Part shown: positions 1 to 61,765 of the stretch, in pieces | Layout: each line of letters opens with the position of its first letter | Position numbering within the stretch: the first letter of the stretch is position 1 | NCBI GenBank assembly: GCA_965237765.1 | Contig: OZ250157.1 | Coordinates: forward strand, 1,295,508 to 1,359,507 | From: Phototrophicaceae bacterium | Lineage (GTDB): Bacteria; Chloroflexota; Anaerolineae; Aggregatilineales; Phototrophicaceae | Direction of reading: 5' to 3' | Length of the DNA stretch: 64,000 nt | Translations under genes and position numbers: made by a program | The notes under the pieces: generated by a model | The model's input: the letters and a program-made list of their open reading frames with translations, nothing else | Databases searched by the model: none | What the model was told of the DNA's origin: nothing

Positions 1-893
1 TCGACGATGAAAGCCGCGTGCAGGGTGGGCAGCAGGTCAGCCGCTTCCGGCGCCGTGAGCGCGTCTTCCGGCCGCGGCTCGCGCAGGATGTGCTCGATTT
101 CGGCGCGCAGGCGGCTGCCGCTGAGGCGGGCCAGGATCGGTAACGATTCCTGCGCCCAGCGGGCCGTCTCTTCCTCCCAGCGCAGGCCGAGGCGGGCCGC
201 CAGCCGCAAACCGCGCAGGATGCGCGTCGGGTCGTCGCGGAAGCTGGCCGGGTGCAGGGCGCGCAGGCGTCGCTCTTGCAGGTCGCGCTGGCCGCCGCAA
301 GGGTCGAGCAGCTGCCCGAAGGCCGGCGGCGGGCTGAGCTGCAGGGCGAGCGCGTTGACGCTGAAATCGCGCCGCCAGAGGTCCTCTTCGGCCGTGCCGG
401 GGTAGGGCTGGGGCAGCTGGCCGGGGCGCGGGTAACGTTCGCGGCGCGCGTTGGCGAAATCGACCGCGATGTTCTCTATCGCCGCGATGTTCTCTATCGC
501 CGCGATGTTCTCTATCGCCGCGATGTTCTCTATCGCCGCGATGCCGCTCGGTGCCAGCCACTGCGCGGTGCCGAAGCGGGCGTGGGTTCGCAGCTCGCCG
601 CCGAGATCGGCCTGGAGGGCGCGGGCGAATTGGATGGCATCCTGGAGCGAAGGGCCGGCCAGCATCAGGTCCAGCTCATTTCCAGGATAGCCGAGCAGCC
701 AATCACGCACCACACCACCGACGAGGTAAAGGGGGCGCGTGCCGGCACTTCGCGGCCGTAAGAAGCGCGTGCCGGCACTTCGCGGCCGTAAGAAGCGCAC
801 GTCGGCGCGGGCGACGATCTCGAAGAGGAGGGCGGCGCGCTCCGGGCCGAGCTGCTGGCGAGCCTGGGCGTGGGTGAAGGTAGGGGTGATCAT
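1..893 (-). CDS. tRNA nucleotidyltransferase (CCA-adding) / poly(A) polymerase family protein; 3' end runs off the window
   Basis: Own minus-strand translation from ATG at 893..891: MITPTF...LYLVGGVVRDWLLG...FGTAQW...VDFANARRERY...RRDFSVNALA...FRDDPTRILRGLRLAARLG. Not in the supplied track because there is no stop in the window. Carries two in-frame repeat insertions (737-796 and 466-545). Confidence 0.8.
   Translation of the reverse strand, partial: MITPTFTHAQARQQLGPERAALLFEIVARADVRFLRPRSAGTRFLRPRSAGTRPLYLVGGVVRDWLLGYPGNELDLMLAGPSLQDAIQFARALQADLGGELRTHARFGTAQWLAPSGIAAIENIAAIENIAAIENIAAIENIAVDFANARRERYPRPGQLPQPYPGTAEEDLWRRDFSVNALALQLSPPPAFGQLLDPCGGQRDLQERRLRALHPASFRDDPTRILRGLRLAARLGLRWEEETARWAQESLPILARLSGSRLRAEIEHILREPRPEDALTAPEAADLLPTLHAAFIV
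466..545. repeat. 18-bp tandem repeat GCGATGTTCTCTATCGCC, about 4.4 copies, in-frame inside the CCA-enzyme gene (IAAIEN x4)
   Basis: Perfect units at 466-483, 484-501, 502-519 and 520-537, plus a partial unit. The unit has inverted ends GCGAT...ATCGC. Confidence 0.95.
737..796 (+). repeat. Dispersed 30-nt repeat, 2 tandem units (C:G variant), inside the CCA-enzyme gene
   Basis: GCGTGCCGGCACTTCGCGGCCGTAAGAAGC x2. Read on the gene strand as RFLRPRSAGT x2, directly before LYLVGGVVRD. Confidence 0.95.
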
Positions 894-1020
894 GGGGTTA
901 GGATAGCGGGCGATGCGTTGCATCGCAGGCCGGCGCTTTGTGACTGCAGTCGCCGTCGAGAAAAGGGTCAAAGAGCGCATGTTACAATGTGGCCGCGGCC
1001 AGCAATGGATGGGGGCCACT

Positions 1021-1560
1021 ATGGACGAACCGAGGCAAGAATTCAACCAGGCGAAAGCCCTGGCGGTCGTCCTGTATCTGGCGATTCGCACCCCTCGTCC
1101 CAGCTTCATGAGCATCGCCAAACTGATGTACTTCGCGGACAAAACCCATCTGGAGCGCTATGGCCGCCTGATCAGCAGCGATCACTATGTCGCCAGGCAA
1201 CACGGGCCGGTGCCGAGCAACACCTACCAACTGATGCGCGACTCCGGAATCTACAGCCCATATGGCTTTAAGGTCGTCGACGATTACTTCATCGAGGCGA
1301 TTGACGCCCCGGACCTGGGCGAACTGGCGGACCAGGAGGTCCAATGCCTGGATGAGATCATCGCGCGTTTCGGCGACGCGCCTACCTGGTACCTGCAGCA
1401 ACTGAGTCAGGATCGCGCCTGGCAGCGCGCCTGGCAGGGTGGGCAGGAGCAGGGCGAAGCGAGCCACCCGATTCCCGAAGCGGAGCTGCTCCGCATGTTG
1501 TTCGCGGACCAGGGCGAGCAATGGCCGTCCTTTATCCAGGAACTCCGGGACAACCTTTAA
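1021..1560 (+). CDS. Panacea/DUF4065 (SocA/GepA-like) domain protein, putative antitoxin
   Basis: IAKLMYFADKTHLERYGRLISSDHYVARQHGPVPSNTY matches the DUF4065 core as I remember it. The track ORF starts at 913, and ATG 1021 (MDEPRQEF) is my preferred start. Confidence 0.6.
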   Translation: MDEPRQEFNQAKALAVVLYLAIRTPRPSFMSIAKLMYFADKTHLERYGRLISSDHYVARQHGPVPSNTYQLMRDSGIYSPYGFKVVDDYFIEAIDAPDLGELADQEVQCLDEIIARFGDAPTWYLQQLSQDRAWQRAWQGGQEQGEASHPIPEAELLRMLFADQGEQWPSFIQELRDNL

Positions 1561-1976
1561 TGCCCCTCCGCGAGGCAAAAGCCTGGCGTGTCTTCCGTTA
1601 CCAGAATCCGGACGACGAACCGGATGGAGCGTTGATTCTCGCCTTGTGGGTGGCAAGTGACACCATCCATGGAGTCAGGATCCATGCCAAACCGGCGAGG
1701 ATCAAGCCCTTGCAGGAAAGCGAGACGCTCCTCACGCTGGATTTCCTGCCACGACCGCTGGCTTACATCCGTTTCGACACGCTATTCAGCGGCAGCTTCG
1801 AAGCGTTCACCTCGAGCGACCAGGAGAAGAATTGGGTGGTCACGGGCCGCGCGCGCTATCAGGTGCTGGCCAAAGCCCTCAGTCCCGAATCGCGCTTATC
1901 GGGCAGAGTGAAAGGACTTTTGCGGCAGGAAAACCTCGCGTTCTTGAACCATTGGGCGAAGCGATTGCGGCTCTAA
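1560..1976 (+). CDS. Hypothetical protein, candidate toxin partner of the Panacea-domain protein
   Basis: ATG at 1560 overlaps the upstream TAA (TAATG). The 138 aa contain no motif I recognise. The 3' end overlaps the convergent methyltransferase gene by 4 nt. Confidence 0.45.
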   Translation: MPLREAKAWRVFRYQNPDDEPDGALILALWVASDTIHGVRIHAKPARIKPLQESETLLTLDFLPRPLAYIRFDTLFSGSFEAFTSSDQEKNWVVTGRARYQVLAKALSPESRLSGRVKGLLRQENLAFLNHWAKRLRL

Positions 1977-4082: not shown

Positions 4083-4438
4083 GCTACACCTCCTGTCGGC
4101 CCGATGCTTCGCATCGGCAGTCCGGCGCGCGCGACCAGGCAATCGCCCAGCGCCTCGTTGAGCTCGACCACGATCGCCTTGTATTGGTCCGGCATACCAG
4201 TGATCGTGTGCGAGACCGGGATGCGCTCCAGGGCCACTTCCAGGAGCACCCGCACTTCCGGCGATACGTCGTCGATGACCATCGCGGCCAGGCGCTCGGC
4301 GGCAGTCAGCTGGCGCAGCGGCCCGTAAAGCGCCGGCTCGCGCAGCAACAGCAAGGAGCAACTCAAGAAGAGCGACATCATCTCGACGACCTGGTCTTCC
4401 GTCAGGAATTTCCGTTCCTCATCCATGGGCACCTCCAC
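4079..4438 (-). CDS. Hypothetical protein, translationally coupled to the nitroreductase gene
   Basis: ATGA overlap at 4079-4082 with the downstream nitroreductase start. Coding-like composition but no recognised motif. Confidence 0.5.
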   Translation of the reverse strand: MEVPMDEERKFLTEDQVVEMMSLFLSCSLLLLREPALYGPLRQLTAAERLAAMVIDDVSPEVRVLLEVALERIPVSHTITGMPDQYKAIVVELNEALGDCLVARAGLPMRSIGPTGGVA

Positions 4439-4541: not shown

Positions 4542-5939
4542 ATGAAGCGCGAGCCGGCACTTCGCGGCGCGAGCGGGCACTTCGCCGCCGTAAGAAGCCG
4601 TAAGAAGCGCGGGTGTGGCGGCTGCGTGCTGCTGTTGCTGCTCGTCGCGCTGGCGGTGGCGGTCTACCTGTTGGTGGCACGCAGCGAGGTGTCGTCCTTG
4701 CGCTGGCGGGTGGCGCTGCTCGGTCAGGGGGAGGCGCTGAACCGGCCGGCGGGCGCGGATGACACGCCGGTGCGCGTCCTGCTCCGCCCCGGGCAGAGCG
4801 CGCCGAGCCTGGCGGCGGCCTTGGCGGCAGCCGAGCTGATCCATTCCGAGCGCCTCTTCCTCGCCCATTTGCGCGCGGAGGGGTTGGATCGGCAGCTGGT
4901 CGCCGGCGAATACTACCTGGATTCGACGCGGAGCATCGTGGCGGTCGCGGCGGCGCTCGGCGCGCTCGGCAGCAGCCCCTTCCCGTATCCGTCCCTGGTC
5001 GCGCAGGACGCGGGGTCGCGCGTTCGCTTCACGGTGGCGGCGAGGGAGACGGTGGCGGGCATCGGTCAGCGCCTGCTCACGGCGGGTGTCATCGACGATG
5101 CGGCTTTCTTCGAGCGTTATGTGGCGCGCAATGGACTGGCGGCGGAAATCCAGCCGGCCATCTATTTCTTCTCACCCGCGCAGCATATTGGCGAGATCGC
5201 CCAGCGCCTGACGGACGCGGCCGCCAGCGTGATCCCGCTGCAGATCATGCCGGGGATGCGGCTGGAGGAGATCGCGCGCGCGCTGGATGAGAGCGCGCAC
5301 CCCTTCGCCTTCCGCGGCGCCGATTTCCTTTACTTAGTGGGGCAGGGCGCGGTGGTTGCGCCGGAATTTCGCGCGTTCGCCCAGTTGCCCACCGGCGCCT
5401 CGCTGGAGGGATTCTTCCTGCCGCAATTCCACCGCCTCAGCCCCGATATCAGCGCGCAGGAGCTGCGCGATCTACTGTTGGAGGCCTTCCCGCAGGCGCT
5501 GGCCGAGACGCCGCTGCCGGAAGAGGCGGCCGCGCAGGGCTGGACGATATACGAAGCGGTTACGCTGGCCGCGATTGTAGAGCGCGAGGCGATTTTCCCG
5601 GAGGAGTTTGCGGCGATCGCGGGGGTATACCGCAATCGGCTGGTGAACCGCTGGCGGTTGGAGGCAGACCCGACGGTGCAATACGCCCTGCAGGGCACGC
5701 GCGGGCGCTGGTGGCCGCAGATTTCGCCCGCCGATTACAGCAATGTCGTCTCCCCCTACAACACCTACCTGCAGACGGGCTTGCCGCCGGGGCCGATCGC
5801 CAGCCCGAGCCTGGCGGCCATCGAAGCGGCCCTGCGGCCCGAGCAATCGGATTATTTCTTCTTCCGCGCGCGCTGCGACGGGAGCGGCACCCATGCCTTC
5901 GCGGTTACCTACGAGGAGCACCTGGCGAATGGCTGCTGA
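4542..5939 (+). CDS. mltG: Endolytic murein transglycosylase MltG (YceG-like)
   Basis: YRNRL...LEADPTVQYAL...YNTYLQTGLPPGPIASPS...YFFFRA..GTHAF motifs. N-terminal TM segment. The cytoplasmic tail includes repeat-derived codons (4549-4608). Confidence 0.85.
   Translation: MKREPALRGASGHFAAVRSRKKRGCGGCVLLLLLVALAVAVYLLVARSEVSSLRWRVALLGQGEALNRPAGADDTPVRVLLRPGQSAPSLAAALAAAELIHSERLFLAHLRAEGLDRQLVAGEYYLDSTRSIVAVAAALGALGSSPFPYPSLVAQDAGSRVRFTVAARETVAGIGQRLLTAGVIDDAAFFERYVARNGLAAEIQPAIYFFSPAQHIGEIAQRLTDAAASVIPLQIMPGMRLEEIARALDESAHPFAFRGADFLYLVGQGAVVAPEFRAFAQLPTGASLEGFFLPQFHRLSPDISAQELRDLLLEAFPQALAETPLPEEAAAQGWTIYEAVTLAAIVEREAIFPEEFAAIAGVYRNRLVNRWRLEADPTVQYALQGTRGRWWPQISPADYSNVVSPYNTYLQTGLPPGPIASPSLAAIEAALRPEQSDYFFFRARCDGSGTHAFAVTYEEHLANGC
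4549..4608 (+). repeat. Dispersed repeat: 20-nt module (C:G) + 30-nt unit (G:C) + duplicated 10-nt tail
   Basis: GCGAGCCGGCACTTCGCGGC / GCGAGCGGGCACTTCGCCGCCGTAAGAAGC / CGTAAGAAGC. Confidence 0.9.
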
Positions 5940-5963
5940 GGGGGTGTGTTTGAGGGAGATGGG

Positions 5964-7723: not shown

Positions 7724-8482
7724 ATGCCCGAAGAATTTGGCGGCTTCCCGGCCGCCAGCCAGCAATTCCTGGCGGAGCTGGCTGCCAACAACCGGCGCGA
7801 ATGGTTTCAGGAGCAGCGCGAGCGCTATCAGCGCGACCTGCTGGCGCCGGCGCAGGCCTTCTGCGTCGCCCTTGGTGAGCAGCTGCAAGCGATTGCGCCC
7901 GGCATCCGCTATGACCCGCGCGCGAATGGACAAGGCTCGCTGCTGCGCATCCAACGCGACACGCGCTTCTTACGGCCGCGAAGTGCCGGCACGCGCTTCA
8001 GCCGCGACAAATCGCCCTATAAGACCGTCGTCGGCATACTCTTTTGGGAAGGGCCGGGCAAGAAGATGGCACATCCCGCTTTCGGCTTTGAGTTGAGCGC
8101 GGCCGGCGCGCGCATGATGGCGGGCATGTTCGCCTTCGATAAAACGATGCTCGCCGCCTACCGCGCCGCCGTCGCTGATAGCCAGCGCGGTGCTGAATTG
8201 GAGAGGGCCATCGCCGCCCTGCGCGCCGCCGGCGAATATGAAATCAGGGGCGAGCGATACGCGCGGGTGCCGGCGGGGTATGCGGCCGACCACCCGCGCG
8301 CGGATTGGCTGCGCTATAAGAACCTGTACGCCGCTATGCCGCCCATCCCAGCGGCGCTCATCACGACGCCTGAATTGGTGGAGCATTGCCGCGTGCTCTG
8401 TGAAGGGGCGGCGCCCTTATTCGCCTGGCTGGTAGCGCTACAGTCGGGTACGGAAAATCATTTCATCGTAGGAGGTGGCTGA
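7724..8482 (+). CDS. DUF2461 (TIGR02453) family protein
   Basis: FGGFPAASQQFLAELAANNRREWFQEQRERY and RDTRF..SRDKSPYKT motifs. A 30-nt repeat (7965-7994) splits the RDxRFSxDKxPYK motif. Confidence 0.75.
   Translation: MPEEFGGFPAASQQFLAELAANNRREWFQEQRERYQRDLLAPAQAFCVALGEQLQAIAPGIRYDPRANGQGSLLRIQRDTRFLRPRSAGTRFSRDKSPYKTVVGILFWEGPGKKMAHPAFGFELSAAGARMMAGMFAFDKTMLAAYRAAVADSQRGAELERAIAALRAAGEYEIRGERYARVPAGYAADHPRADWLRYKNLYAAMPPIPAALITTPELVEHCRVLCEGAAPLFAWLVALQSGTENHFIVGGG
7965..7994 (-). repeat. Dispersed 30-nt repeat, single unit (C:G), in-frame inside the DUF2461 gene
   Basis: GCTTCTTACGGCCGCGAAGTGCCGGCACGC, flanked on both sides by ACGCGCTTC. Confidence 0.95.
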
Positions 8483-10311: not shown

Positions 10312-10396
10312 CGGAGAGGGTGGGATTCGAACCCACGACGGCTTTCGCCGTACTCGCTCTCCAAGCGAGCGCATTAGGCCTCTATGCTACCTCTCC
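10312..10396 (-). tRNA. tRNA-Ser (anticodon GGA)
   Basis: Hand-folded cloverleaf: acceptor GGAGAGG/CCTCTCC, anticodon stem CTCGC/GCGAG with loop TTGGAGA, long variable arm CGGC-GAAA-GCCG, T-arm GTGGG-TTCGAAT-CCCAC. No encoded CCA. Confidence 0.9.
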
Positions 10397-10479: not shown

Positions 10480-10597
10480 GCGTGCTGGCACCATGCAGCC
10501 GTAAGAAGCGCGTGCTGGCACCATGCAGCCGTAAGAAGCGCGTGTTGGCACTTCGCAGCGCGAGCTGGCACTTCGCAGCCGCAAGACGCCGTAAGAC
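10480..10597 (+). repeat. Dispersed repeat array, 4 modules (all T:A variant), between tRNA-Ser and the CMD-like gene
   Basis: Two 30-nt units GCGTGCTGGCACCATGCAGCCGTAAGAAGC, one 20-nt module, and one module with two CAA-type tails. Confidence 0.9.
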
Positions 10598-10649
10598 GCA
10601 CGTGCTGGGGTATGCTTGTGCTGTGAGGGATCAAGAAGGGAGGCGCGGT

Positions 10650-13404: not shown

Positions 13405-14784
13405 TTATCCCGAAATCGTCTCGTAGATCAGCGGCGGCGGGTCAGCACGGGTCTCGCCGATGGTGAAAGGCGAGCCGGTCGAATCGTGCGAGTTTGAGGA
13501 AGCGCTCCCTTCCCCACCGGAGAGCATCCGGCGCGCCGCGGCCAGCTGCCCTTCATCGTTGGCGTGTATTGTCAACAACGGTGCGCCTTTTTCCACCATA
13601 TCGCCCAGCTCCGCGCGCATCACCAGGCCGACGGCGGGGTCGATCACATCTTCTTTGCGCAGGCGGCCGGCGCCCAGCGCGGTGCAGGCGCGCCCGAGCA
13701 CAGGCGCATCGATCGCGTTCAGGTAGCCGCTGGCGGGGGCGGGGAAATCCTCGCGCAGGCGTGCCTGGGGCAGGCGGTGCATGTCCTCTAGCTGGCGCGG
13801 GTCGCCGCCCTGGGCGGCCACCAACTGCTGCAATTTCTCGAAGGCGCTGCCATCAGCCAGGCGCGCTTCCAGCTCGGCGCGCGCATCTTCTGGGCTTACT
13901 TTGCGCGCTTCTTGCGGCCGCGAAGTGCCGGCACGCGCCAGTTGCAACATAGCGGCGGCGACGATGAGGCAATGTTCGCGCAGGCGGGTGGGCGGATTGT
14001 GGCACAGGGTGCGGCAGGCCTCGGCCACCTCTAGCGCGTTGCCGACGGCGCGGCCGAGTGGCTGGTTCATGTCGGCGATTAAGGCGACCATATCGCGCCC
14101 GGCGGCGTGCCCGACGGCCACCATCTCCTGGGCGAGCTGACGCGCCTCGGCATATTCGGCGGTGAACGCGCCACTGCCCACTTTGACATCCAGCACGATG
14201 CCCTGTGCGCCGCCGGCCAGCTTTTTGCTCATGATGCTGGCGGCAATCAGGGGGATGCTGTTGACGGTAGCCGTCACGTCACGCAGGGCGTAGAACTTGC
14301 CATCGGCCGGCGCGAGGTCGGCGCTTTGTCCGGCGAGGGCGAGGCCGACTTTCTCCACCTGTGCGCGCATCTCCGCCACGCTGAGCTGGTGACGGAAACC
14401 GGTGATCGCTTCGATCTTATCCAGCGTGCCGCCGGAGTGGCCGAGGCCGCGGCCGCTCATCTTGACGACGGGCACGCCACAGGCGGCCACCAGCGGCAGA
14501 ACGACCAGCGTGGTCGTATCGCCCAGGCCGCCGGAAGAATGTTTATCGACGGCGTAGGGGAGCAGGTCGGACCAATCCAGCTGCTCACCGGAGGCGGCCA
14601 TGGCGGTGGTGAGGGCAGCAGTCTCGGCGCTGGTCATGCCGCGCAGGAAGACGGCCATGAGGAAGGCGGCGGCCTGGTAATCGGGCAGCTCGTCACGCGC
14701 GTAGGCCTGCACGAAATGGGAGATTTCGCTATCGCTGAGGGGGTGGCCATCGCGCTTGCGGGCGATGATATCGGTGGCTTGCAT
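13405..14784 (-). CDS. Thymidine / pyrimidine-nucleoside phosphorylase
   Basis: IIARKRDGHPLSDSEISHFV...AAFLMAVFLRGMT...DKHSSGGLGDTT...SGRGLGHSGGTLDK. Contains a 30-nt repeat insertion (ARAGTSRPQE). Confidence 0.9.
   Translation of the reverse strand: MQATDIIARKRDGHPLSDSEISHFVQAYARDELPDYQAAAFLMAVFLRGMTSAETAALTTAMAASGEQLDWSDLLPYAVDKHSSGGLGDTTTLVVLPLVAACGVPVVKMSGRGLGHSGGTLDKIEAITGFRHQLSVAEMRAQVEKVGLALAGQSADLAPADGKFYALRDVTATVNSIPLIAASIMSKKLAGGAQGIVLDVKVGSGAFTAEYAEARQLAQEMVAVGHAAGRDMVALIADMNQPLGRAVGNALEVAEACRTLCHNPPTRLREHCLIVAAAMLQLARAGTSRPQEARKVSPEDARAELEARLADGSAFEKLQQLVAAQGGDPRQLEDMHRLPQARLREDFPAPASGYLNAIDAPVLGRACTALGAGRLRKEDVIDPAVGLVMRAELGDMVEKGAPLLTIHANDEGQLAAARRMLSGGEGSASSNSHDSTGSPFTIGETRADPPPLIYETISG
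13907..13936 (-). repeat. Dispersed 30-nt repeat (C:G) in-frame in the phosphorylase gene, tail variant CAA instead of TAA
   Basis: GCTTCTTGCGGCCGCGAAGTGCCGGCACGC. The gene reads it in the one repeat frame that normally contains TAA. Confidence 0.95.
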
Positions 14785-14847: not shown

Positions 14848-14923
14848 GCGTGCTGGCACTTCGCAGCCGTAAGAAGCGCGAGCGATGTCCTTTATCGCCC
14901 GGCACTTCGCAGCCGCAAGAAGC
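14848..14923 (+). repeat. Dispersed repeat: one intact unit (T:A) plus one unit interrupted by a copy of the 18-bp element
   Basis: GCGTGCTGGCACTTCGCAGCCGTAAGAAGC, then GCGAG-[GCGATGTCCTTTATCGCC overlapping]-CGGCACTTCGCAGCCGCAAGAAGC. The 18-mer at 14882-14899 matches the 466-545 unit at 16 of 18 positions. Confidence 0.9.
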
Positions 14924-14944: not shown

Positions 14945-16168
14945 TCATAAAAACCGCACGGCTACCCCTTCGCCACAGGCGCGCCAGGCCAGCGCCAAGG
15001 CCATCACCGTGTCATCGTGCGCGCCGCCGGCCGCGCCGTAGCGATAACCGCCCAGCGGCAGGCGCTCCTGCTGGTAGGCCGCCAGCTCCGCCAGCAGCGT
15101 CGGCTCGGGTTGGATGCGCAAATCATCCCGCTCGAGCGCCAGGGCCAGCGCCTCGATCAGCGGCGGCTTGTTGCGCGCCGTCGTGTAGAAGGGGCGGATG
15201 GGCAAACCCTCGTGCTGCAGCGCTTCCAGGTTGGGCTCGCCGATGCTATTCGCCTCCGCCAGCAGCAGGGCCGGCCGCCAGCGTTCGGTGAGAGCCAGGA
15301 TGCGCGAGCGCTGCAGCTCCCAGCCGATTTCGCGGAACCGTTCCAGGGCGACCATGCGGGTGACCGCTGGTGCCCCGCCCGCGCTCTCATGGGGGATTTC
15401 CAGCACGACCACGGCGGTGTAGTCATGGCTGCGGCCCCAATCGATACCGGCGACGTAATGGCCGCTGGCGCGCGGGGCGGTTGCCATGGGCGCGCTGGCG
15501 GCGCGGGCCGGTTCGCGAAAGACGCCCGCTTCGCCCGGCAGGAATTCGGCCAGGTATTCGCGGCGGAAGGTGGTATCGCGCGTGTGGCGGCGCAGCGAAT
15601 CCAACTCGGCGCGGGTGATGCGCGGGTTGTCGTAACTGGTGAAATGGAAGCTGCGCCATTCGCGCTCCGCCGGGTCTTGTCCGCGCGCGTAGCATTTGTG
15701 GAACCAGTTCAAGCCGTTGGGAGTGGAGAGCAGGAGGACGCTGCCGCGGCGGTCGATGAGCATGGGGCGGAGGATGTCTTCCCAGAGAGGCTGCGGCACG
15801 TGAGCGGCTTCGTCTACGACGAGGAAATCCAGGCCGGCGCCGCGCAGGGAATCGTGGCTGCGGGCGCTGCGGACGAGGATGGAGCCGCCGCCGGGGAAAT
15901 CCAGCCCGCGTTCGGATTGGGCGATGGTGGCGCCGCTGGTGGCCGCTTCCGCGCAGAGGGCGCGCCAGACCTGCAATGCGTTGTCGTAGGTGGGCGCCAC
16001 CCACCAGCATTCCTTTTTTCGCCGCGCCCGGGCGAATATCGCTCGCAGGCCGACGGTCGTCTTGCCGAAGCGCCGCCCGCAGGCGACGACGCGGAAGCGC
16101 TCGTCCGCGCTGGCGATTTGTTTCTGCGCGGGGTGCAGGGTGACATGGGGGAATCTGCGCGATGCCAT
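14945..16168 (-). CDS. Phage terminase large subunit-like protein (orphan)
   Basis: Walker A CGRRFGKTT, Walker B DFLVVDEAAH, and an RNaseH-like nuclease region YVAGIDWGRSHDYT...GAHDDTVMALALA. No other phage structural genes in the window. Confidence 0.8.
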   Translation of the reverse strand: MASRRFPHVTLHPAQKQIASADERFRVVACGRRFGKTTVGLRAIFARARRKKECWWVAPTYDNALQVWRALCAEAATSGATIAQSERGLDFPGGGSILVRSARSHDSLRGAGLDFLVVDEAAHVPQPLWEDILRPMLIDRRGSVLLLSTPNGLNWFHKCYARGQDPAEREWRSFHFTSYDNPRITRAELDSLRRHTRDTTFRREYLAEFLPGEAGVFREPARAASAPMATAPRASGHYVAGIDWGRSHDYTAVVVLEIPHESAGGAPAVTRMVALERFREIGWELQRSRILALTERWRPALLLAEANSIGEPNLEALQHEGLPIRPFYTTARNKPPLIEALALALERDDLRIQPEPTLLAELAAYQQERLPLGGYRYGAAGGAHDDTVMALALAWRACGEGVAVRFL

Positions 16169-26390: not shown

Positions 26391-26416
26391 GATGCGGGCT
26401 GCATGAGAGGCGGGGT

Positions 26417-27448
26417 ATGAAATTCATCTTTGGCGCCAAGCCGAAAGCGCCCATCACCAACTTCACGCGGCTCGTGCAGCTGGGCGAAAGCCTCGGCTAT
26501 GACGCCGCTTGGATCCCCGATCAGACCTTCTTCCCGGACCCTTTCGTGACGCTGGCCGTCGTCGCCAGCCAGACCGAGCGCATCGAGCTGGTCATTGGCG
26601 TCGCCAATCCTTATACGCGCCACCCTGTGCAGGTCGCCCGCGCGGCCGCCACCCTGGATGATCATTGCCCCGGCCGGGTCGCCCTCGGTTATGGCGCCGG
26701 CAACCGGCGCGAGCTGATCGTACCGCTCGGCGGCGAGCAGGAGCAGGCGGCCGCCCACTGTCGCGAGGCGCTGCAGCTGTGCCGTCGCTTGTTGCGCGGG
26801 GAATTCCTGCACCACCGCGGGGAGCACTTCATCGCCGATGGCGTCGAGCTGGAGATGGCGCCGCATCCGGATGTGCCGCTCTATCTGGCGGCGCGCGGCC
26901 CGCTGGTCTTGCAGGTGGCCGGCGAGCTTGCCGACTGCGCGGTGATCGGCGCGTTATTGGATGAGGGGGCGCTCGCTTGGTCGCTGGAACAGGTCGCCAT
27001 CGGGGCGCAAAAGAGCGGCCGCAACCTGGAAGAAATCGGGCGGATGATCTGGATCACCTGCCACATCACCGAGGACGCGCCGCAGTCTTACGGCCGCAAA
27101 GGGACGGCACGCGCCTGGCTGGATCATTGCCGCCCTTCGGCCGCGCATATCCTGGCCGGGGCGCCGCCCGCCGTCTTTGAAGCGTTGCGCTTGACGGATC
27201 GCTTTCGCGATGAATTGAAAGCAGTTTATGGGGAGCGCGGCAGCGATGGGGCCGCCTCGCTCGTCTCCGATGATCTGGTGCAGCGCTTGATGGCGATCGG
27301 CCGCCCGGAGGAGGTCGCGGCGCAGCTGCAGGCGGCAATCGATACGGGCATCAACGAGATCGGCATCCTCGTCAATGCGCCGACCGTCGCTGAATCCGAA
27401 GCGGCGATTCAACGCTTCGCCGATGAGGTGATGCCGCGCCTGTGCTAA
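26417..27448 (+). CDS. LLM-class flavin/F420-dependent oxidoreductase
   Basis: MKFIFG...LGYDAAWIPDQTFFPDPFV...IGVANPYTRHPV...GYGAGN. Paralog of 32132-33136. Start at ATG 26417, not the track's 26093. Confidence 0.85.
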   Translation: MKFIFGAKPKAPITNFTRLVQLGESLGYDAAWIPDQTFFPDPFVTLAVVASQTERIELVIGVANPYTRHPVQVARAAATLDDHCPGRVALGYGAGNRRELIVPLGGEQEQAAAHCREALQLCRRLLRGEFLHHRGEHFIADGVELEMAPHPDVPLYLAARGPLVLQVAGELADCAVIGALLDEGALAWSLEQVAIGAQKSGRNLEEIGRMIWITCHITEDAPQSYGRKGTARAWLDHCRPSAAHILAGAPPAVFEALRLTDRFRDELKAVYGERGSDGAASLVSDDLVQRLMAIGRPEEVAAQLQAAIDTGINEIGILVNAPTVAESEAAIQRFADEVMPRLC

Positions 27449-43975: not shown

Positions 43976-44003
43976 CTCTTACGGCTGCAAGTGCCAGCAC
44001 GCG
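43976..44003 (-). repeat. Dispersed repeat copy (T:A), slightly degenerate
   Basis: CTCTTACGGCTGCAAGTGCCAGCACGC. Confidence 0.85.
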
Positions 44004-44004
44004 C

Positions 44005-44245
44005 ATGGCGGGGGATCTGGGTTTTCGCGTGGTTGTCGTGGCGGACGCCACCGCCGCGCACGAGGCATACAGCTATGATGGCCGTCCGACCCAATGGGGT
44101 CGGCACTACTCGGCGCAGACGGTGCACGAGGTGGCGCTCTCTTACGGCTGCGAAGTGCCAGCACGCGCTGGCGAACCTGAACGGGGAATTCGCCACCATC
44201 CAGACGACCGAGCAGCTGATCGCGGCGGTGGGCGACTTCGGTTGA
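44005..44245 (+). pseudogene. Isochorismatase/cysteine-hydrolase family 3' fragment, frame broken by a 31-nt repeat insertion
   Basis: GDLGFRVVVVADATAAH...TVHEVAL | repeat | ANLNGEFATIQTTEQLIAAV. The two halves lie in different frames. Confidence 0.5.
44135..44166 (-). repeat. Dispersed repeat copy (T:A); the net insertion is 31 nt
   Basis: GCTCTCTTACGGCTGCGAAGTGCCAGCACGC, bracketed by GCGCT. Confidence 0.9.
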
Positions 44246-44319
44246 CAGCGCCCTTTCGGTGTGAATCGTATGGGTGTTTATTTCGGAGGGGAAGTCGTAG
44301 AGTCTATTTCCAAGCGCCT

Positions 44320-44955: not shown

Positions 44956-45830
44956 AGTAAAAATTTCCTCAACCGTTTCTCTGCTATGTCAATATACTCA
45001 CTCGCAATATCAATTCCGATGTATCGTCGTTTGTTCAGCATCGCCATTTTGCAAGTTGTGCCTGAGCCGCACATCGGATCCAGGACGATTTCCCCGGGGT
45101 TGCTCCAGGATAAGATATGATCCTCAGCCAACCGTTCTGGGAATACGGCCGGATGCTGGAAGGCGATCTTATCCCTTGTCGTCCCGCCAAGACCTACCGC
45201 ATAAGACCAGATATTGGTGAGAGTCTTCTCCCGTTTCAGCATGGCACGCCGTTTCTTATTGATACCATCCGGCAATTTGTTGTGTGTTAACATCTCTTCA
45301 CCGCTGCGCACTGTCGGCGCTTTCAGCGGGTTGAACGTCTTGGGCGGGCCACCCTTCGAAAGCACCACCATCAATTCGTAAGCATTGGTGTAGGCGTTTG
45401 AGCGCATAAATGGTGTGTTCTTCTTTTGGTATATCATCACATCATGGACTGTAAAACCAATTTCTTGAAAATGAATGGCTTGCCGGAAACTCGTTAGTGT
45501 GCGGCCACCATTGATTTTGTCTCCTACAACCCATACAACGACACCACCTTTTTTGGTGACACGGAATAGCTCAGCAGCAATACCTTCGAAGTCAAATTGA
45601 TAACCCTCATAATTTCGCAATGTGTCGTAGGGTGGTGACGTTACCGTCAAATCAATGCAATTATCCGACCAGCGTGACATAACATCCACACAATTGCCGT
45701 GATAAAGTGTATCGACTGAAAAAACCCTTTTACGCTTAATTTTCGCTGGGGATGAAATGACTGTACTTACCATAGTTGGCCACCCCAATATGATTGCTTG
45801 TATACTTGTTCTATAAATAATATACAACAA
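44952..45830 (-). CDS. DNA methyltransferase, beta-class, probably N4-cytosine (SPPY)
   Basis: Motif IV is LTVTSPPYDT and motif I is LDPMCGSGTTCKMAMLNKRRYIGIDI. Low GC. Confidence 0.85.
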   Translation of the reverse strand: MLYIIYRTSIQAIILGWPTMVSTVISSPAKIKRKRVFSVDTLYHGNCVDVMSRWSDNCIDLTVTSPPYDTLRNYEGYQFDFEGIAAELFRVTKKGGVVVWVVGDKINGGRTLTSFRQAIHFQEIGFTVHDVMIYQKKNTPFMRSNAYTNAYELMVVLSKGGPPKTFNPLKAPTVRSGEEMLTHNKLPDGINKKRRAMLKREKTLTNIWSYAVGLGGTTRDKIAFQHPAVFPERLAEDHILSWSNPGEIVLDPMCGSGTTCKMAMLNKRRYIGIDIASEYIDIAEKRLRKFLL

Positions 45831-45842: not shown

Positions 45843-47009
45843 TCAAAAAAACCGCTTCGCCAGCGCCAAGGCCCCCTGCTTCCACGGCTGGCGGTGGCCG
45901 ACACCGGCACCACCCTCGAATTCGGCGCGATTCGCCACGTACCAATCGTAATTGCGAATCAAGGCATCGCGGTTCGAATAACGCGGCGCGAAGCCCAGGC
46001 GCTCCTCGGCGCGGGCGATGCTGATGAAGGAATCCTTGGCCACGGTCTCATACACCCATTTGTAGAGCGGCGAAAGCCCCAGCTTCTCCAGCGCGCGCAG
46101 GGTCCAGATCGCCGGCATGACCGGCAGGGAGCGGACGCGCTTCCCGTGCCCCGCGTGGTCGAGCAGGGCCTGGAAATCCTCACGCACGGTGCCGAATTCG
46201 CGGGCGCCGATGTTGAAGGTCGCCTCGGCCCGTTCACGCGGCAAGGTCGCGCAGAGCCAGATGGCCACGCAAAGGTCTTCGACATCCAGATATTGGTAGC
46301 GGTTGCGCCCATTGCCGAGGATGGGGAAGCCATGGCCATCGGCGGCCCATTCGTAGAGCAGGGCGAAGACGCCGAGGCGCTCTTTGCCGATGAAGGTCTT
46401 GGGGCGGAGGATGGGCACGACGAAGCCTTCGTCCCGCGCAGCGCGCGCCAGCTTTTCCGCCTCGATCTTCGCTTCGCCATAAGGGCCGACGCCGACGAGT
46501 GGGTCGCCTTCGTGCAGCGGGTGGTGGTCGGGGATGCCATAGACGGCCGTGCTGGAAATGTGCACGATGCGTTGGCAGCCGGCGCGGCGTGCTTCTTCCA
46601 GGACGCGGCGCGTGCCTTCGATTTCGGTGGAGAAGATGTCGGCGCGCGAGTACAGGGGCAGGGCGGCGGCGCAGTGGACGACGATATCGACCCCCGCCAG
46701 CGCGGCGCGCAGATCCTCCCGCCGCCGGATGTCGCCCGTGAAGATGGTGACACGTTCCCGTTCTGGATAATCGAAGGGCGCGATGTCTAACGAGGCGACG
46801 TGTTGCCCGCGCGCGAGTAGGTAACGGGCCAGGTTGATGCCCAGGAAACCGGCGCCGCCAGTGATGAGGAAGCGCGTGCGGGCACTTCGCCGCCGTAAGA
46901 AGCGCGTGCGGGCACTTCGCCGCCGTAAGAAGCGCGTGCGGGCACTTCGCCGCCGTAAGAAGCGCCGCGCTGTTTCCGCCGCATCGGCCGGCTCTCCGTT
47001 AACTGGCAT
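45843..47009 (-). CDS. NAD-dependent epimerase/dehydratase with three repeat units in its N-terminus
   Basis: [17 protein letters not shown] Rossmann motif, preceded by [10 protein letters not shown] x3. No in-frame start lies between the repeats and the Rossmann motif. Confidence 0.85.
46874..46963 (+). repeat. Dispersed 30-nt repeat, 3 perfect tandem units (G:C variant)
   Basis: GCGTGCGGGCACTTCGCCGCCGTAAGAAGC x3. Confidence 0.95.
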
Positions 47010-48240
47010 AGTTCGGCCCGAAGAGCTGGCTCATCAGTTGCCACATCAACAATTGATCCGGCACGAGCACGTGCTGGCCATCTTCGGGGCGGACCCAGTC
47101 AGTTACGTAAGGCGCTCGGAGCACGGCGGTCTCGATATTCTCCGCGGAAAAATCCTTGAGGTACCAGGCGAGAGAAACCATATCATCCAGATCCAGGTTG
47201 GTATACAGGGAATCGCGCAGGTTGGCGAGCAGGCTGGGGATGCGGGCCAGCAAGACAGGCAACAGGCGCAAGCGCTGGATGCGCTCACGCAGGGCGAAGA
47301 GCACCTGTTGTTGGCGGGCGGAGCGTTGCATATCGCTGCCGCCATGGCGCGTGCGCGCGAATTTCAGCGCGTCTTCGCCATCCAGATGATGGGCGCCGGC
47401 CGAGAGGTAAAAGGGGTCGTAGCCGCGGTAAAGGTCCGGGTAGGCGGGGTCGTCGATGGCTTCTTCGAGGATGACGTCGATGCCGCCCACGGCATCCACC
47501 AGGGCGATGAAAGCCGAGAAATCCAGCAGAGCGTAAGCGTGCACGCGGATGCCCAGGTTGGCCTGCACGGTCTGGAGCAGCAAAGTGGGCCCATAGCCCC
47601 GCCACTGGGTCTCGCCGAAGAAAAGGGCCGCGTTGAGGCGTTGCTCTTCGTAGTTGGGGATGTGGACGTACAAATCACGCGGGAGGCTGAGGATGCCGAT
47701 GCGCTCGCTTTCGGGGTCGATGCTGATGAGCATCATGGAATCGGTGCGGAAAGCGAGGCCGCCCTCGTCGGGCCGGCGGTCGATACCAGCGACGAGCAGG
47801 GTGAAGCGCGAGCGGCCATCCCAGGCTTGCAGGGCGATTTCGCGGCCATCGTCCAGGGTGAGGAGGGGCGGCGGCGCTGCTGCGTCGAACGTGGCGGAGC
47901 TATCGCCGCCGGTGGGTAAGACGCGCACACCGAGGACGGGCGTGGGCATGGCAGCGGCGACCTGGATGGCCGGCGCGGCGGCCGGCGTGATGTCTGAGGG
48001 CGCGCGTTCCAACCGCGTGACGAATAGGGCGAGGGCGCCGAGGGCCAGGATGGCGAGGATGAGCGCCGCGCCCGCCACAGCGAGTAGCAGGGCGGCATGC
48101 CAGAGGCGGAAGCGCGTGCGGGCACTTCGCCGCCGGCGGCGGACGAGCTTTCGGGCGGCTGGCTGCACGCTATACTCGGCGGCGCGTGCGGGCACTTTGC
48201 CGCCGTAAGAAGCGCGCGCCGATGAGGCGGGAGGTGTCAT
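46999..48240 (-). CDS. LCP (LytR-CpsA-Psr) family protein
   Basis: [30 protein letters not shown]...[13 protein letters not shown]-terminal TM segment. The cytoplasmic tail contains repeat-derived codons. Confidence 0.85.
48114..48213 (+). repeat. Two dispersed-repeat copies (G:C): a truncated one at 48114-48134 and a full one at 48184-48213
   Basis: GCGTGCGGGCACTTCGCCGCC and GCGTGCGGGCACTTTGCCGCCGTAAGAAGC. Confidence 0.9.
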
Positions 48241-52156: not shown

Positions 52157-52186
52157 GCTTCTTACGGCTGCGGAGTGCCAGCATGC
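52157..52186 (-). repeat. Dispersed 30-nt repeat, single copy (T:A), just upstream of the Nfu_N-like gene
   Basis: GCTTCTTACGGCTGCGGAGTGCCAGCATGC. Confidence 0.9.
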
Positions 52187-54358: not shown

Positions 54359-54578
54359 GCGTGCTGGCACTTCGCAGCGCGTGCGGGCACTTCGCCGCCG
54401 TAAGAAGCGCGTGCGGGCACTTCGCCGCCGTAAGAAGCGCGTGCGGGCACTTCGCCGCCGTAAGAAGCCGCAAGACGCCGTAAGAAGCGCGTGCCGGCAC
54501 TTCGCGGCTGTAAGAAGCGCGTGCCGGCACTTCGCGGCGCGTGCTGGCACTTCGCAGCCGCAAGACGCCGTAAGAAGC
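54359..54578 (+). repeat. Largest dispersed-repeat array: 7 hairpin modules with all three variants, plus duplicated tails (220 bp)
   Basis: Units at 54359-78 (T:A), 54379-408, 54409-38 and 54439-68 (G:C). Tails at 54469-88. Then 54489-518 and 54519-38 (C:G) and 54539-78 (T:A). No spacers. Confidence 0.95.
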
Positions 54579-54587: not shown

Positions 54588-55373
54588 TCACCCGACCGTC
54601 TCCTCAGCCGCGTAGATGGGCCGGATTGCCTCGGGCGGAAAGGCCAGGCGAGGCTCCTGCCCGGCCGCCATTGCTGCTCGCAGGCGTTGCCAGGCTAGCT
54701 CGGCCAGGTAGCCCGCGCGCCGCAGGTTCGCCGCTGGCGGGTAGCGATAGGGCCGCGCTTCGTCGATGCCCGCGTCCGCGTCGCTCATCGCCGCCATATC
54801 CCACTCGCCGATGAGGGCGTCATCGGCTGTGCAGCGGGCGCGCAGCTCCGCGCCGGTCAGCCGCAGCAAGGGGCCGTCCTCGCGCCAGGTGCCCGCTCGC
54901 CACAGGTAGCAGCGCGCGTAGAGGCGCCCTCGCCCCGCCGGCACGACCGCCCAGAGCCGCCCCGCGCGCGCGCCGCAAGACGCCACCAGCGCCGCGTGCG
55001 CGCCGATACCCACTAGCGGCAGGCCGCGCGCCTCTTGCGTCTTGCGGCTTCTTACGGCGGCGAAGTGCCCGCACGCGCTGCGAAGTGCCAGCACGCGCTG
55101 CGAAGTGCCAGCACGCGCCTCAGCCAGGCCCTGCGCCAGCCCAATGCCGCTGCGCAGCCCTGTATATGAGCCGGGGCCGAGCGAAACAGCCAGCGCGCCC
55201 AGCGCCGGGGCGCCGCCGAAAGCCGCCAGGCTGCGCGCCACGGCCGGCGCCAATTGCGTGGTCGGTTGCCGCGCGGCGCGCCAGCTGTGCTCGGCCAGGA
55301 GCGCTGCGCCATCATGCAGGGCGAAGCTGAGCGTATCGCCCGCCGTATCCAGCGCGAGGAGCAGCCCGTTCAT
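54588..55373 (-). CDS. tsaB: tRNA threonylcarbamoyladenosine biosynthesis protein TsaB, carrying an 87-nt repeat insertion
   Basis: LLLALDTAGDTLSFAL...GPGSYTGLRSGIGLAQGLAEA-[29 aa]-RGLPLVGI. Confidence 0.85.
   Translation of the reverse strand: MNGLLLALDTAGDTLSFALHDGAALLAEHSWRAARQPTTQLAPAVARSLAAFGGAPALGALAVSLGPGSYTGLRSGIGLAQGLAEARAGTSQRVLALRSACGHFAAVRSRKTQEARGLPLVGIGAHAALVASCGARAGRLWAVVPAGRGRLYARCYLWRAGTWREDGPLLRLTGAELRARCTADDALIGEWDMAAMSDADAGIDEARPYRYPPAANLRRAGYLAELAWQRLRAAMAAGQEPRLAFPPEAIRPIYAAEETVG
55027..55113 (-). repeat. Dispersed repeat: 3 modules (20+20+30 nt plus CAA-type tails) in-frame in tsaB
   Basis: Period of 87 nt between identical CGCGCCTC at 55027-55034 and 55114-55121. Encodes [29 protein letters not shown]. 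Confidence 0.95.
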
Positions 55374-58187: not shown

Positions 58188-58195
58188 GGGATGCG

Positions 58196-60218: not shown

Positions 60219-60404
60219 CTCATCTCTTTTCTTTTCTCGCAGTTTGATAGTAGACATAAGAATACTGGATTGCGCCTCTTCCCCCAAGAATCGGTGGCGG
60301 CGCATGATCTTATAGCCGTCTGCATCGTCATTGGCGGCATCCCAATTAAGCGTGTCGCTGGCTGGCTGGGGCCGGGGCGACGACCGTGGCGACGGGCGCC
60401 GGTA

Positions 60405-61616
60405 TCAAGATGCGCGCTCCCAGCAACAATGCAAGGCGCGCGGGCCGCGGAATTCATGTCCGCGTGGGCGCGCCCGCTCGGCCGCCTCTTCATCGTCGCG
60501 CAGGCGCAGATTCGGCAACGCTTTGAAGAGCGCGCGCAGCCCGAGCTGCCCCTCCAGCCGCGCCAGCGCCGCCCCCAGGCAATAGTGCGGGCCGATGGCG
60601 AAGGAGAGGTGATCGCCCGCCCGCGCCCGGCGGATATCGAAACGCTCTGGCTCGGTGAAATGCGCCGCGTCGCGGTTGGCGGCGGAGAGAATGCATTGCG
60701 CCACCTCGCCGGCGGCCAAATCCACACCGCTCAGCGTCGTCGGCCGCGTAATATGGCGGGTGGCCGTTTGCACGGGCGCCTCCCAACGCAGGGCTTCCTC
60801 CAGCGCGTTTGGCAACAGCGACCAATCGGCGCGCAGGGCGGCGAGTTGGGCCGGGTGTTGCAGCAGCGCCCAGATCGTGTTGCCCAGCATGGCGGCCGTC
60901 GTCTCCCGGCCGCCGAAGATGGTCAGGATGGTGTTGGCGACGATGGCGTCTTCATCCAGGTGGTGCTGGGGGTGGCAGGCGATGGCGCTGAGCGTGGATT
61001 CATCCGGTTCATCGGCGAGGCGTTGCAGGTGCGCGCGGATCTCCGCGCCGAAGGCTTGGGTGGCGGCGCGGCCGCGGGCGCGGATTTCCTCGTCGCGCGT
61101 GAAGTTGGCGAGGGCGGCGGCGATGTCGTCATACCAGGCGCGGAACTGGTCGAGATCGGCCAACGGCAGGCCGAGCACCTGCGTGACGCTAATGATGGCG
61201 AGCGGGTCGCAGAATTCGCTCATCAGATCGCCTTCGCCGCGCGCCGCGAATTGACTGATGAGCGAGGCGACCAGCTCGCTGATGCCCTCGGTATGGAGGC
61301 GGCGCAGGCGGCGCGGTTGGTAGGCTTCGGCGAAAGGCGCGCGCTGACAGCGGTGCGCTTCGCCGTCGAGAGAGAGCATCATCTCGCCGATCGTGTCGCG
61401 TAGGAGCGAATGGGGGGAGGCGACGGTGTAGGTTGCCGTGTCGTAGAGCACGGTGAGGATGTCTTCGCGCCGGGTGACGTACCATTGTTGGGTTTCGCCG
61501 ACCCAGCTGATGGGCTCGCGCGCTTGTAGTTGTCGGTAATAGGGGTAGGGGTTCTCGGCGAGTTGAGCGAGGCGAATCCGGTCGCCGAGGGGGAATTGGC
61601 GCGCGCGCGGGTTCAT
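60405..61616 (-). CDS. Cytochrome P450
   Basis: Heme-binding loop FAIGPHYCLGAALARLE, the EALRWEAP (ExxR) motif, and FGGRETTA in the I-helix. Start at ATG 61616. The track extension to 61814 runs through repeats. Confidence 0.9.
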   Translation of the reverse strand: MNPRARQFPLGDRIRLAQLAENPYPYYRQLQAREPISWVGETQQWYVTRREDILTVLYDTATYTVASPHSLLRDTIGEMMLSLDGEAHRCQRAPFAEAYQPRRLRRLHTEGISELVASLISQFAARGEGDLMSEFCDPLAIISVTQVLGLPLADLDQFRAWYDDIAAALANFTRDEEIRARGRAATQAFGAEIRAHLQRLADEPDESTLSAIACHPQHHLDEDAIVANTILTIFGGRETTAAMLGNTIWALLQHPAQLAALRADWSLLPNALEEALRWEAPVQTATRHITRPTTLSGVDLAAGEVAQCILSAANRDAAHFTEPERFDIRRARAGDHLSFAIGPHYCLGAALARLEGQLGLRALFKALPNLRLRDDEEAAERARPRGHEFRGPRALHCCWERAS

Positions 61617-61631
61617 CTGGCGGAGTATAGC

Positions 61632-61765
61632 GCGTGCCGCCGATCCTCGGATCGGCACTTCGCGGCGCGTGCTGGCACTTCGCAGCGCGTGCGTAAGATG
61701 CCGCCTGTTGCCGTCACTTCGCGGCCGTAAGAAGCGCGTGTGGGCACTTCGCCATCGTAAGAGAG
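61632..61765 (+). repeat. Dispersed repeat cluster, about 4 modules (C:G with a nested 15-nt palindromic insert, T:A, one degenerate, G:C)
   Basis: GCGTGCC-[GCCGATCCTCGGATC]-GGCACTTCGCGGC, then GCGTGCTGGCACTTCGCAGC, a degenerate unit, then GCGTGTGGGCACTTCGCCATCGTAAGAGAG. Confidence 0.85.

Follow-up and report, generated by a model that had tools for sequence, protein, structure and literature searches.

A 64,000-nt stretch of the genome of a Phototrophicaceae bacterium (assembly GCA_965237765.1, contig OZ250157.1, positions 1,295,508 to 1,359,507 of the forward strand; the whole stretch is hereafter called the window) carries a family of short modular repeats that lie both between and inside protein-coding genes. 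Each unit comprises a 20-nt head, made of block A (GCGTGC-X-GGC) and block B (ACTTCGC-Y-GC), followed by zero to three tails of 10 nt (block T, CGTAAGAAGC, with variants T' CGCAAGACGC and T'' CGCAAGAGGC). Units are 20 to 46 nt in size and are arranged as (A B T*)n in a strict 10-nt register, and the head contains a short inverted repeat, GCXG-N8-CX'GC. The 20-nt pattern GCGTGCNGGCACTTCGCNGC, allowing at most two mismatches, has 27 matches in the window compared to 0.03 expected from shuffles. With degenerate and variant copies included, reading each listed locus and splitting the window into 10-mers gives about 35 modules at 15 loci. Those beyond the 27 near-exact matches are a pair with a variant B block (10480 and 10510), a pair of "long-A" modules (14878 and 61632), and degenerate modules at 27093, 43976, 61687, and 61736. 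A first-pass annotation, made from the letters of the window alone, had described about 34 modules at 14 loci in both orientations; all 14 loci are real, and the grammar of 10-nt blocks bears out the modularity it described, although its last locus, given as 61632-65, should read 61632-61765 and a degenerate locus at 27083-27112 on the minus strand had been overlooked.

The family is carried at orthologous positions in independent assemblies made from other samples with other assemblers (ERZ25067264, ERZ28763718, ERZ26167216, ERZ23491400, and the SPAdes metagenome-assembled genome [MAG] WTGJ01). These assemblies, together with decayed orthologous copies, rule out an assembly artifact. A CRISPR-like array is also ruled out, as spacers are absent.

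Several arrays interrupt protein-coding genes. At 737..796 (+), two ABT units of the C/G type (named for X/Y; 60 nt) lie in frame within a minus-strand gene of the CCA-adding/poly(A) polymerase family, where they encode RFLRPRSAGT twice, directly before the conserved PLYLVGG motif. The same gene holds an 18-nt tandem repeat, ATCGCCGCGATGTTCTCT, in 4.7 copies (459-543), encoding IAAIEN repeats, of which only about 15 nt are found in the ortholog of the related locus L064; that ortholog also lacks the array at 737. An array of 60 nt at 4549..4608 (+), AB(C/G)-AB(G/C)-T-T, follows codon 3 of an MltG/YceG gene (4542-5939, +) in frame. A single ABT (C/G, 30 nt) at 7965..7994 (-) splits the motif RDT|RFSRDK in frame in a plus-strand DUF2461 gene, and another with a CAA tail (C/G, 30 nt) at 13907..13936 (-) lies in frame in a thymidine/pyrimidine-nucleoside phosphorylase gene (13405-14784, -), where it encodes about ARAGTSRPQE. 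Three ABT units of the G/C type (46874..46963, +; 90 nt) lie in frame in the N-terminal part of an NAD-dependent epimerase gene (45843-47009, -) and encode 30 amino acids, one 10-residue peptide three times over. In the N-terminal region of the LytR-CpsA-Psr (LCP) gene (46999-48240, -), the locus at 48114..48213 (+) consists of AB (G/C), 40 nt of other sequence, and a B-like block with ABT (G/C). The tsaB gene (54588-55373, -) contains AB AB AB T T' T'' in frame at 55030..55116 (-), with the last tail 3 nt short (87 nt, 29 amino acids). A degenerate ABT at 27083..27112 (-) lies inside a luciferase-like monooxygenase ORF (open reading frame; 26093-27448, +). Two ABT-like copies of the T/A type are found in the remnant of an isochorismatase-like gene, one with a 1-nt deletion at its 5' edge (43976..44003, -) and one of about 31 nt at 44135..44166 (-). 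The remnant (43640-44420) is a C-terminal fragment only, and its frame is shifted by the element of 31 nt; insertion is therefore not harmless in every case.

The remaining arrays lie outside genes. At 10480..10599 (+), an intergenic array of the T/A type reads A B' T A B' T A B A B T' T (B' is ACCATGCAGC), about 85 nt from a tRNA gene (10312-10396, - strand; Rfam, 59.8 bits). The intergenic locus at 14848..14923 (+) has ABT (T/A) followed by a long-A module (GCGAGCGATGTCCTTTATCGCCCGGC), B, and T. A single ABT at 52157..52186 (-; T/A, variant GCATGC...ACTCCGC) lies just upstream of an Nfu_N gene. The largest array, at 54359..54578 (+), has 22 blocks (220 nt) in which all three X/Y types are mixed, and extends exactly from the stop codon of tsaB to the start codon of rimI. 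Upstream of a P450 gene, the intergenic locus at 61632..61765 (+) consists of a long-A module (GCGTGC C GCCGATCCTCGGATC GGC) and B, then AB, a degraded unit, BT, and an old degenerate AB. A DinB/Pol IV (IMS family) gene (61867-63081) directly adjoins this array, which is probably a coincidence, though relevant to ideas of template switching.

Copies within protein genes

ORF translation across the arrays, together with a Pfam scan, shows that roughly half of the loci fall within ORFs whose frame continues through the repeat. Seven loci are in intact ORFs, and two more copies are in a decayed gene. Insert lengths in the intact genes of the window are 30, 30, 30, 60, 60, 87, and 90 nt, all multiples of three without an in-frame stop, and the differences in length between strains at intact genes are 30, 30, 30/60/87/90, 30 versus 90, 60, 60, and 45 nt. 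No such restriction to multiples of three is seen in intergenic arrays or in their differences between strains (220, 76, 46, about 80, 19, and 31 nt). The frame inside genes is thus kept by purifying selection: only stop-free arrays whose length is a multiple of three survive. A CAA tail is present wherever TAA would be an in-frame stop (in thymidine phosphorylase and in tsaB of L147). Such tails occur in intergenic arrays too, so selection probably sorts pre-existing variants.

Five of the six reading frames are used, in both orientations, so no particular peptide is selected, and a protein-coding repeat under selection is ruled out. Splicing or ribosomal bypass of the inserts is ruled out by the frame and stop-codon constraints, which show read-through. 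The Pfam domains of the host proteins are intact on either side of the inserts. From their translations, the surviving intragenic arrays appear to be carried into the protein in steps of 10 amino acids, in loops or N-terminal tails. The thymidine phosphorylase insert corresponds to a gap relative to PDB 7m7k, and in an AlphaFold2 model of the window TsaB (mean predicted local distance difference test score, 74.9) the main low-confidence segment, residues 91-115, is the insert. The copies amount to a natural series of peptide insertions in known enzymes. Annotation pipelines will misjudge gene starts and lengths at arrays; rimI, for example, is called at 240, 270, 292, and 316 amino acids (and at 360 in the error-prone assembly L149).

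Recent gains and insertion sites

Several relatives of the window were compared with it. L101 and L147 are two parts of one 2.67-Mb contig (ERZ25067264 ctg836540), with 93-97% DNA identity to the window over most of the shared region and 87.5% in one block. Further strains are represented by L146, L148, and L150, and more distant ones by L103 and L102. L064 and L097 belong to the MAG "Chloroflexi bacterium CO36387bin_22," and L151 and L153 serve as outgroups at about 70% TsaB identity. An ENA metagenome contig carries an identical thymidine phosphorylase, and named homologs are from Chloroflexota, of the Anaerolineae or Thermoflexia type. L149 was left out of the inference, as its assembly is labeled 8x and its arrays are out of register; more broadly, P0005, P0010, P0013, and L149 come from ENA long-read assemblies labeled 7-8x with frame-shifted conserved genes and out-of-register arrays, so that their single-base differences are unreliable. 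The window clade has 0.2-1 modules per kb. Values for L064, L097, and L103 are lower, and those for the outgroups, whose syntenic DNA lacks the family or nearly so, are close to zero. In a scan of a genome collection with the 20-mer, almost all of the matches listed were chance single hits (Streptomyces and others), the real relatives being L064 and L097. A scan of JGI metagenomes with the 30-mer gave no match, and the clade seems absent from that collection; a protein search with a synthetic repeat peptide returned one match only. The 20-mer also matched 41 viral contigs (L105-L145, IMG/VR), all in one conserved phage coding segment with X/Y of T/C or T/T and no tail; these are unrelated and were kept as a negative control.

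The tsaB gene shows the clearest series of states. The site is empty (AEAHE|LPLL) in six close relatives (P0126-129, P0133, and P0135) and in every outgroup. It holds 30 nt (ABT) in P0125 and P0131, 60 nt (ABABTT) in P0123, 90 nt (ABABABTTT) in P0122, and 87 nt in the window, where the same nine blocks lack 3 nt of the last tail. TsaB proteins that differ in the insert are 94-99% identical outside it. The epimerase has 90 nt in the window, one copy of 30 nt in L146, L147, L148, and L150, and none in outgroup L151. In MltG, an identical 60-nt array is present in L101, and the site is empty in L103, where the protein begins MKRGCAL. The DUF2461 insert is absent from L101, a clean 30-nt difference. 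Six thymidine phosphorylase sequences have the insert, and it is missing from P0002 (L101; 92-94% identical), P0007, P0009, P0012, P0014, and all distant homologs; one lineage has a long-A form at this site, and another has a 24-nt deletion beside the insert. In L102 (1240-1330) and L103 (8530-8600), the insert is accompanied by loss of eight adjacent native codons (net gain of two or seven amino acids), which suggests that the enlarged loop was secondarily trimmed in two lineages. CCA-enzyme orthologs of the window and L064 carry independent inserts at different sites, each empty where the other is filled.

Other loci, intergenic ones among them, vary as well. L101 has only about 40 nt of the array at 10480, and at 14848 it has one additional 46-nt tandem copy of the long unit. 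L146 has an additional ABT in the LCP gene, and outgroup L151 keeps a degenerate copy of the C/G type at the same place. The tsaB and rimI genes overlap without a spacer in L151, and in the window clade the space between them is filled by arrays of 170-460 nt in which multi-block segments are obviously duplicated in tandem, such as the fourfold repeat of AB AB T' T in L150. Comparing copy positions among related strains, a check proposed with the first-pass annotation, thus reveals differences in both presence and copy number. Units have been gained recently at new chromosomal sites, with clean empty sites in outgroups and near-identical strains, and resident arrays grow and shrink by whole blocks.

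This polymorphism bears on whether the repeats serve the host, for instance as an RNA hairpin (terminator, stabilizer, or processing site) or as a phased protein-binding array with 10-bp spacing. The 10-nt register does equal one helical turn, some arrays occur at operon junctions or in 5' regions (between tsaB and rimI and upstream of the P450 gene, Nfu_N, and a tRNA), and published repetitive extragenic palindromic (REP) sequences can serve as RNA elements (PMC3733652). Yet the copies point either way relative to host genes and are read in five frames in unrelated proteins, their presence and number vary among near-identical strains, the outgroups lack them at the same loci, nothing but a tRNA reaches the gathering score of Rfam in the window, and there is no folding signal. 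We therefore regard a host-selected function as very improbable.

The sites at which units were gained are not random in sequence. Comparing the unique flanks of arrays with the element's own ends, the left flank is within one mismatch of GAAGC (the end of T) at 43% of sites, compared to 2% in the background, and the right flank is within one mismatch of GCGTG (the start of A) at 28%, compared to 2.8%. Left flanks end in GC in 19 of 23 cases, and position -3 is always A or G. The empty DUF2461 site reads GAAGC|GCGTG and consists of native codons of the RDTRF motif in the center of the domain; in the window, Pfam matches DUF2461 in two stretches that flank the insert. In L064, the empty counterpart of a 46-nt insert in L103 reads GGAAGC|GCGTGCC, and other empty sites are GAGGC|GCACG (tsaB), GAAAC|GCGGC (MltG), and GAATC|GTTTC (epimerase). 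As the empty alleles already resemble the junction, the similarity of the flanks predates insertion. Preferred targets resemble the junction between tail and head of the element itself, (G)AAGC|GCG(T)G. Identity between the flanks varies from 2 to 12 nt, and there is no fixed-length target duplication. Covariation of the four bases 5' of the stem with the target flank was looked for and not found.

Such targets might be filled without any dedicated enzyme. In homology-primed copying, a nascent strand ending in junction-like GAAGCGCG... would switch to a distant array, copy whole periods, and return. In effect, this would be slipped-strand mispairing across distant sites, or gene conversion over short tracts, and the hairpin would only promote polymerase stalling. 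The direct repeats that flank inserts fit this well, as they equal the junction and vary in length (2 to 12 nt), unlike a fixed-length target duplication. So do the constraint on both flanks, inserts of whole periods (30, 46, or 60 nt), and the tail beside the tsaB flank, which bears the GAGGC of the target rather than GAAGC. Arrays clearly change by multi-block slippage, as in L150, no transposase is seen among the window ORFs, and there is no strand-orientation bias. On the other hand, only GC or AGC matches at the thymidine phosphorylase, CCA enzyme, 10480, and 14848 arrays; arrays almost always start exactly at the first base of A, where every circular permutation of the period would be expected; 18 GAAGCGCG 8-mers in the window are still empty; and X/Y complementarity is left unexplained by copying itself. 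We consider copy choice the main rival to the mobile-repeat reading favored below, possible if somewhat doubtful as the source of new sites.

Pairing in the head and proposed mobilization

Positions X and Y of the head (7 and 18) face each other in the stem GCXG/CYGC, which has 4 bp and an 8-nt loop, is present in the minimum-free-energy fold, and could gain two more base pairs if T4 bulges. The 27 near-exact modules of the window are of C/G (7), G/C (10), or T/A (10) type, and X is A in none. The sole clear exception in the window is the interrupted copy at 14878; every intact module is complementary. The first-pass annotation had put the agreement at about 32 of 34 modules. The 132 modules at 11 loci of the relatives comprise 46 G/C, 37 C/G, 37 T/A, 8 G/A, and one each of G/G, T/G, C/C, and T/C, again never with X as A, so that 120 (91%) are complementary. 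Complementarity at positions 7 and 18 is far above chance. Among 26 distinct variants aligned over the stem (5-8/17-20), 96.2% of cells pair, compared to 84.6 ± 2.3% after shuffling, and none of 500 shuffles is as high. Pair 7:18 in these variants is CG in 8, UA in 8, GC in 6, and other in 4; slid registers score far lower on covariation measures. Pair 6:19 has two U:A and two U:G variants. Covariation of the loop variants (CTTC to CTCC or CTTT) with the tail GAAG was looked for and not found.

Complementarity could arise without any structural role if the three types were clonal subfamilies descended from three master units, forming a dispersed minisatellite (variable-number tandem repeat [VNTR]) family. 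In keeping with this, tails partly differ between the types (T/A units are often tail-less or end in T'T, and G/C and C/G units have a single T), the remaining stem positions hardly vary, the stem has no thermodynamic significance, and G/A, G/G, and T/C copies persist. It is harder to see why the only two strongly polymorphic positions should face each other, with three common states that are all Watson-Crick, when none of 500 shuffles does as well. Long-A modules are complementary too, with C/G at 61632 and in L102 and with G/C in L064, the orthologous LCP module reads C/G in outgroup L151 as against G/C in the window, and one old copy has changed from C6:G19 to T6:A19. Secondary variants (T4A, C15T, G3A, and C6T) each occur on at least two X/Y backgrounds. 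We therefore think it distinctly unlikely that clonal descent is the whole explanation.

We instead favor, at roughly even chances, a family of miniature REP-like mobile repeats that is specific to one lineage of uncultured Chloroflexota, is non-autonomous, and is mobilized in trans through recognition of the hairpin on single-stranded DNA, with cutting and joining at GC|GC. Dispersal would proceed via a single-stranded intermediate in which the X:Y stem is recognized, and a trans-acting nuclease or transposase would cut and join at the GC|GC junction, the natural candidate being an HUH/Y1 enzyme (RAYT or IS200/IS605-like). The requirement for a stem would keep X/Y complementary in each propagating subfamily while leaving resident copies free to decay, and copy-number change within arrays would follow from ordinary replication slippage or unequal exchange. 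On our reading, pairing matters for propagation and not where copies now reside.

A number of observations weaken the case for a structured hairpin. Shuffled sequences fold as well as the stem does, whether treated as DNA or as RNA (z = +0.5 to +0.8). Twelve of the 132 modules in the relatives are non-complementary, mostly G/A; one such copy lies inside tsaB of L147, at a place where X falls on a silent third codon position. As mismatched copies persist even at a silent X, there is no sign of selection for pairing at present copy sites. The other stem pairs scarcely vary, so the evidence rests on a few compensatory switches between subfamilies, and the X/Y types differ in their usual tails, as subfamilies would. 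Thus, the selected hairpin proposed in the first-pass annotation stands in part: complementarity at 7:18 is above chance, but the 4-bp stem is not stabler than shuffles, G/A copies persist, and the variants largely behave as subfamilies.

Enzyme and target raise further difficulties for this mobile-repeat reading. No transposase is found among the window ORFs scanned against Pfam, as had been noted before, and no transposase, RAYT, or other HUH gene was found among these ORFs or in about 170 kb of related loci inspected. IS200/IS605-type elements show strong orientation bias; here, both orientations occur at about 8:7 relative to the leading strand, in a stretch with uniformly positive GC skew. 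Some sites (thymidine phosphorylase and CCA enzyme) have little similarity to the junction, and the unoccupied GAAGCGCG 8-mers mean that junction likeness is a preference, not a sufficient signal. The right flank, and not the left alone, resembles the element's ends, and with both flanks constrained, homology-guided copying fits at least as well as an IS608-like cut. The 4-bp stem is also below the 5-13 bp of all published REP stems (PMC3733652), neither a GTAG nor a CGTC tag is present, and units are arranged head to tail rather than as inverted pairs.

A bolder version of the mobile-repeat reading would be that units of 20-46 nt are the smallest self-propagating DNA yet described, integrating at matches to their own junction by a mechanism of a kind not yet characterized. 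We speculate that unit-length single-stranded circles could be processed by an unrecognized nuclease, or that propagation could be purely polymerase driven through copy choice between distant sites. Although we judge such autonomy unlikely, it would, if true, constitute a natural generator of 10-amino-acid insertions in essential proteins. Since the insertion rule (the element's own junction) is clear and strains are polymorphic, the mechanism of mobilization is directly testable with complete MAGs and long-read population data.

The window holds other small or strain-variable features. A perfect 18-nt hairpin, CCGATGC-TTC-GCATCGG (4101-4118), is absent from L101, which is otherwise 93-97% identical. 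The inserts of the long-A modules (61639-61656 and 14882-14898) are similar mini-hairpins, CGAT(G)...(C)ATCG, which also occur at 910, 25733, and 37793; these hairpins may be a second family of tiny palindromic insertions, to be set beside the Thermomicrobium roseum palindromes described below. Lower-GC islands at 44320-45830 (about 49% at 44-46 kb) and 16229-18895 carry restriction-modification genes, namely an N6/N4 methylase with an endonuclease VII/His-Me protein and an MmeI/Eco57I-like fused enzyme, and the neighboring content differs in L146, L147, and L150. Next to the gene for thymidine phosphorylase is a lone terminase-large-subunit-like gene (Terminase_6N; 14945-16168, - strand) that relatives conserve, with no further phage genes noticed in its vicinity.

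Comparison with known systems

A literature search for the repeat sequence itself returned only primers and unrelated matches, and no prior description was found. Among described repeats, the closest in kind are REP/BIME and REPIN-RAYT systems, which are likewise short GC-rich repeats with a small stem-loop (a predicted one in the present family) in high copy, lineage specific, arranged in mosaic arrays, sometimes inside ORFs, and presumed to be non-autonomous and mobilized in trans. REP superfamilies have GTAG or CGTC tags and stems of 5-13 bp and occur in clusters (Di Nocera et al. 2013, PMC3733652). Their subfamilies differ by alternative complementary stem residues, as C:G, T:A, and G:C do here at 7:18, and their intragenic copies encode tens of residues (PMC3733652). 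The window also recalls the small CCGSSCC-N3-4-GGSSCGG palindromes of another member of the Chloroflexi, Thermomicrobium roseum (PMC3733652), which resemble the CCGATCC..GGATCGG hairpin inside the long-A module. Unlike REPs, the repeats described here have no GTAG/CGTC tag (PMC3733652, PMC6006769) but GCGT (variants GCGA and GCAT) 5' of the stem, or TACG on the other strand; the stem is 4 bp (6 with the bulge) and is joined to a separate 10-nt tail block. REPs are mostly extragenic inverted pairs, and head-to-tail dimers are reported to be rare (PMC3733652), whereas all arrays here are head to tail and about half of the loci are intragenic. Insertion sites here also mimic the unit junction, and no RAYT gene was seen in the DNA covered.

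Other classes share single properties with the family. Miniature inverted-repeat transposable elements differ in that the ends here (GCGTGC... and ...AAGAAGC) are not inverted copies and there is no fixed-length target duplication. IS200/IS605-type elements provide a possible working model, with recognition of a hairpin on single-stranded DNA, cleavage at a short motif, insertion 3' of RGC/GAAGC, and no fixed target duplication; the repeat here is about 50 times smaller, with a single hairpin, no transposase gene, a constrained right flank, and no replication-orientation bias. Mycobacterial MIRU-VNTR loci are direct tandem repeats with units of 40-100 bp that are intergenic, some of them between the genes of an operon, and vary in copy number between strains. 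The dispersed, strain-variable direct repeats of the window behave similarly (170-460 nt between tsaB and rimI, 0-90 nt in tsaB, 30 versus 90 nt in the epimerase, and the 46-nt unit once or twice), and the tsaB-rimI array looks MIRU-like. To our knowledge, no hairpin covariation has been reported for MIRU-VNTR loci, and they are not known to colonize ORFs. The arrays could serve as high-resolution strain markers for an uncultured Chloroflexota lineage.

Small repeats living inside bacterial genes are rare and poorly understood. Rickettsia palindromic elements and Coxiella QMITEs are selfish DNA inserted in frame in protein genes, but they measure 100-150 bp or more, are clearly palindromic or have terminal inverted repeats at their ends, and insert as single copies. 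The inserts in the window appear comparable in that they lie in frame in unrelated, often essential genes, are probably tolerated as an extra peptide, and differ in presence between related genomes; their units are only 20-46 nt, have no long palindrome, and form arrays that grow by 10 amino acids, so that a loop of the essential protein TsaB carries 0, 10, 20, or 30 extra residues among close strains. In size, the nearest parallels are the GC clusters of yeast mitochondria and the "byp" elements of Magnusiomyces, which are 30-50 nt, GC rich, and hairpin forming, spread within the genome, and can sit in coding sequence. Those elements belong to AT-rich organellar genomes, and byp is skipped by the ribosome, whereas the frame and stop constraints indicate that the inserts here are read through. 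The family is best described as belonging to the REP-like class of small mobile repeats, notable for its in-frame colonization of ORFs and for targets that mimic its own junction.

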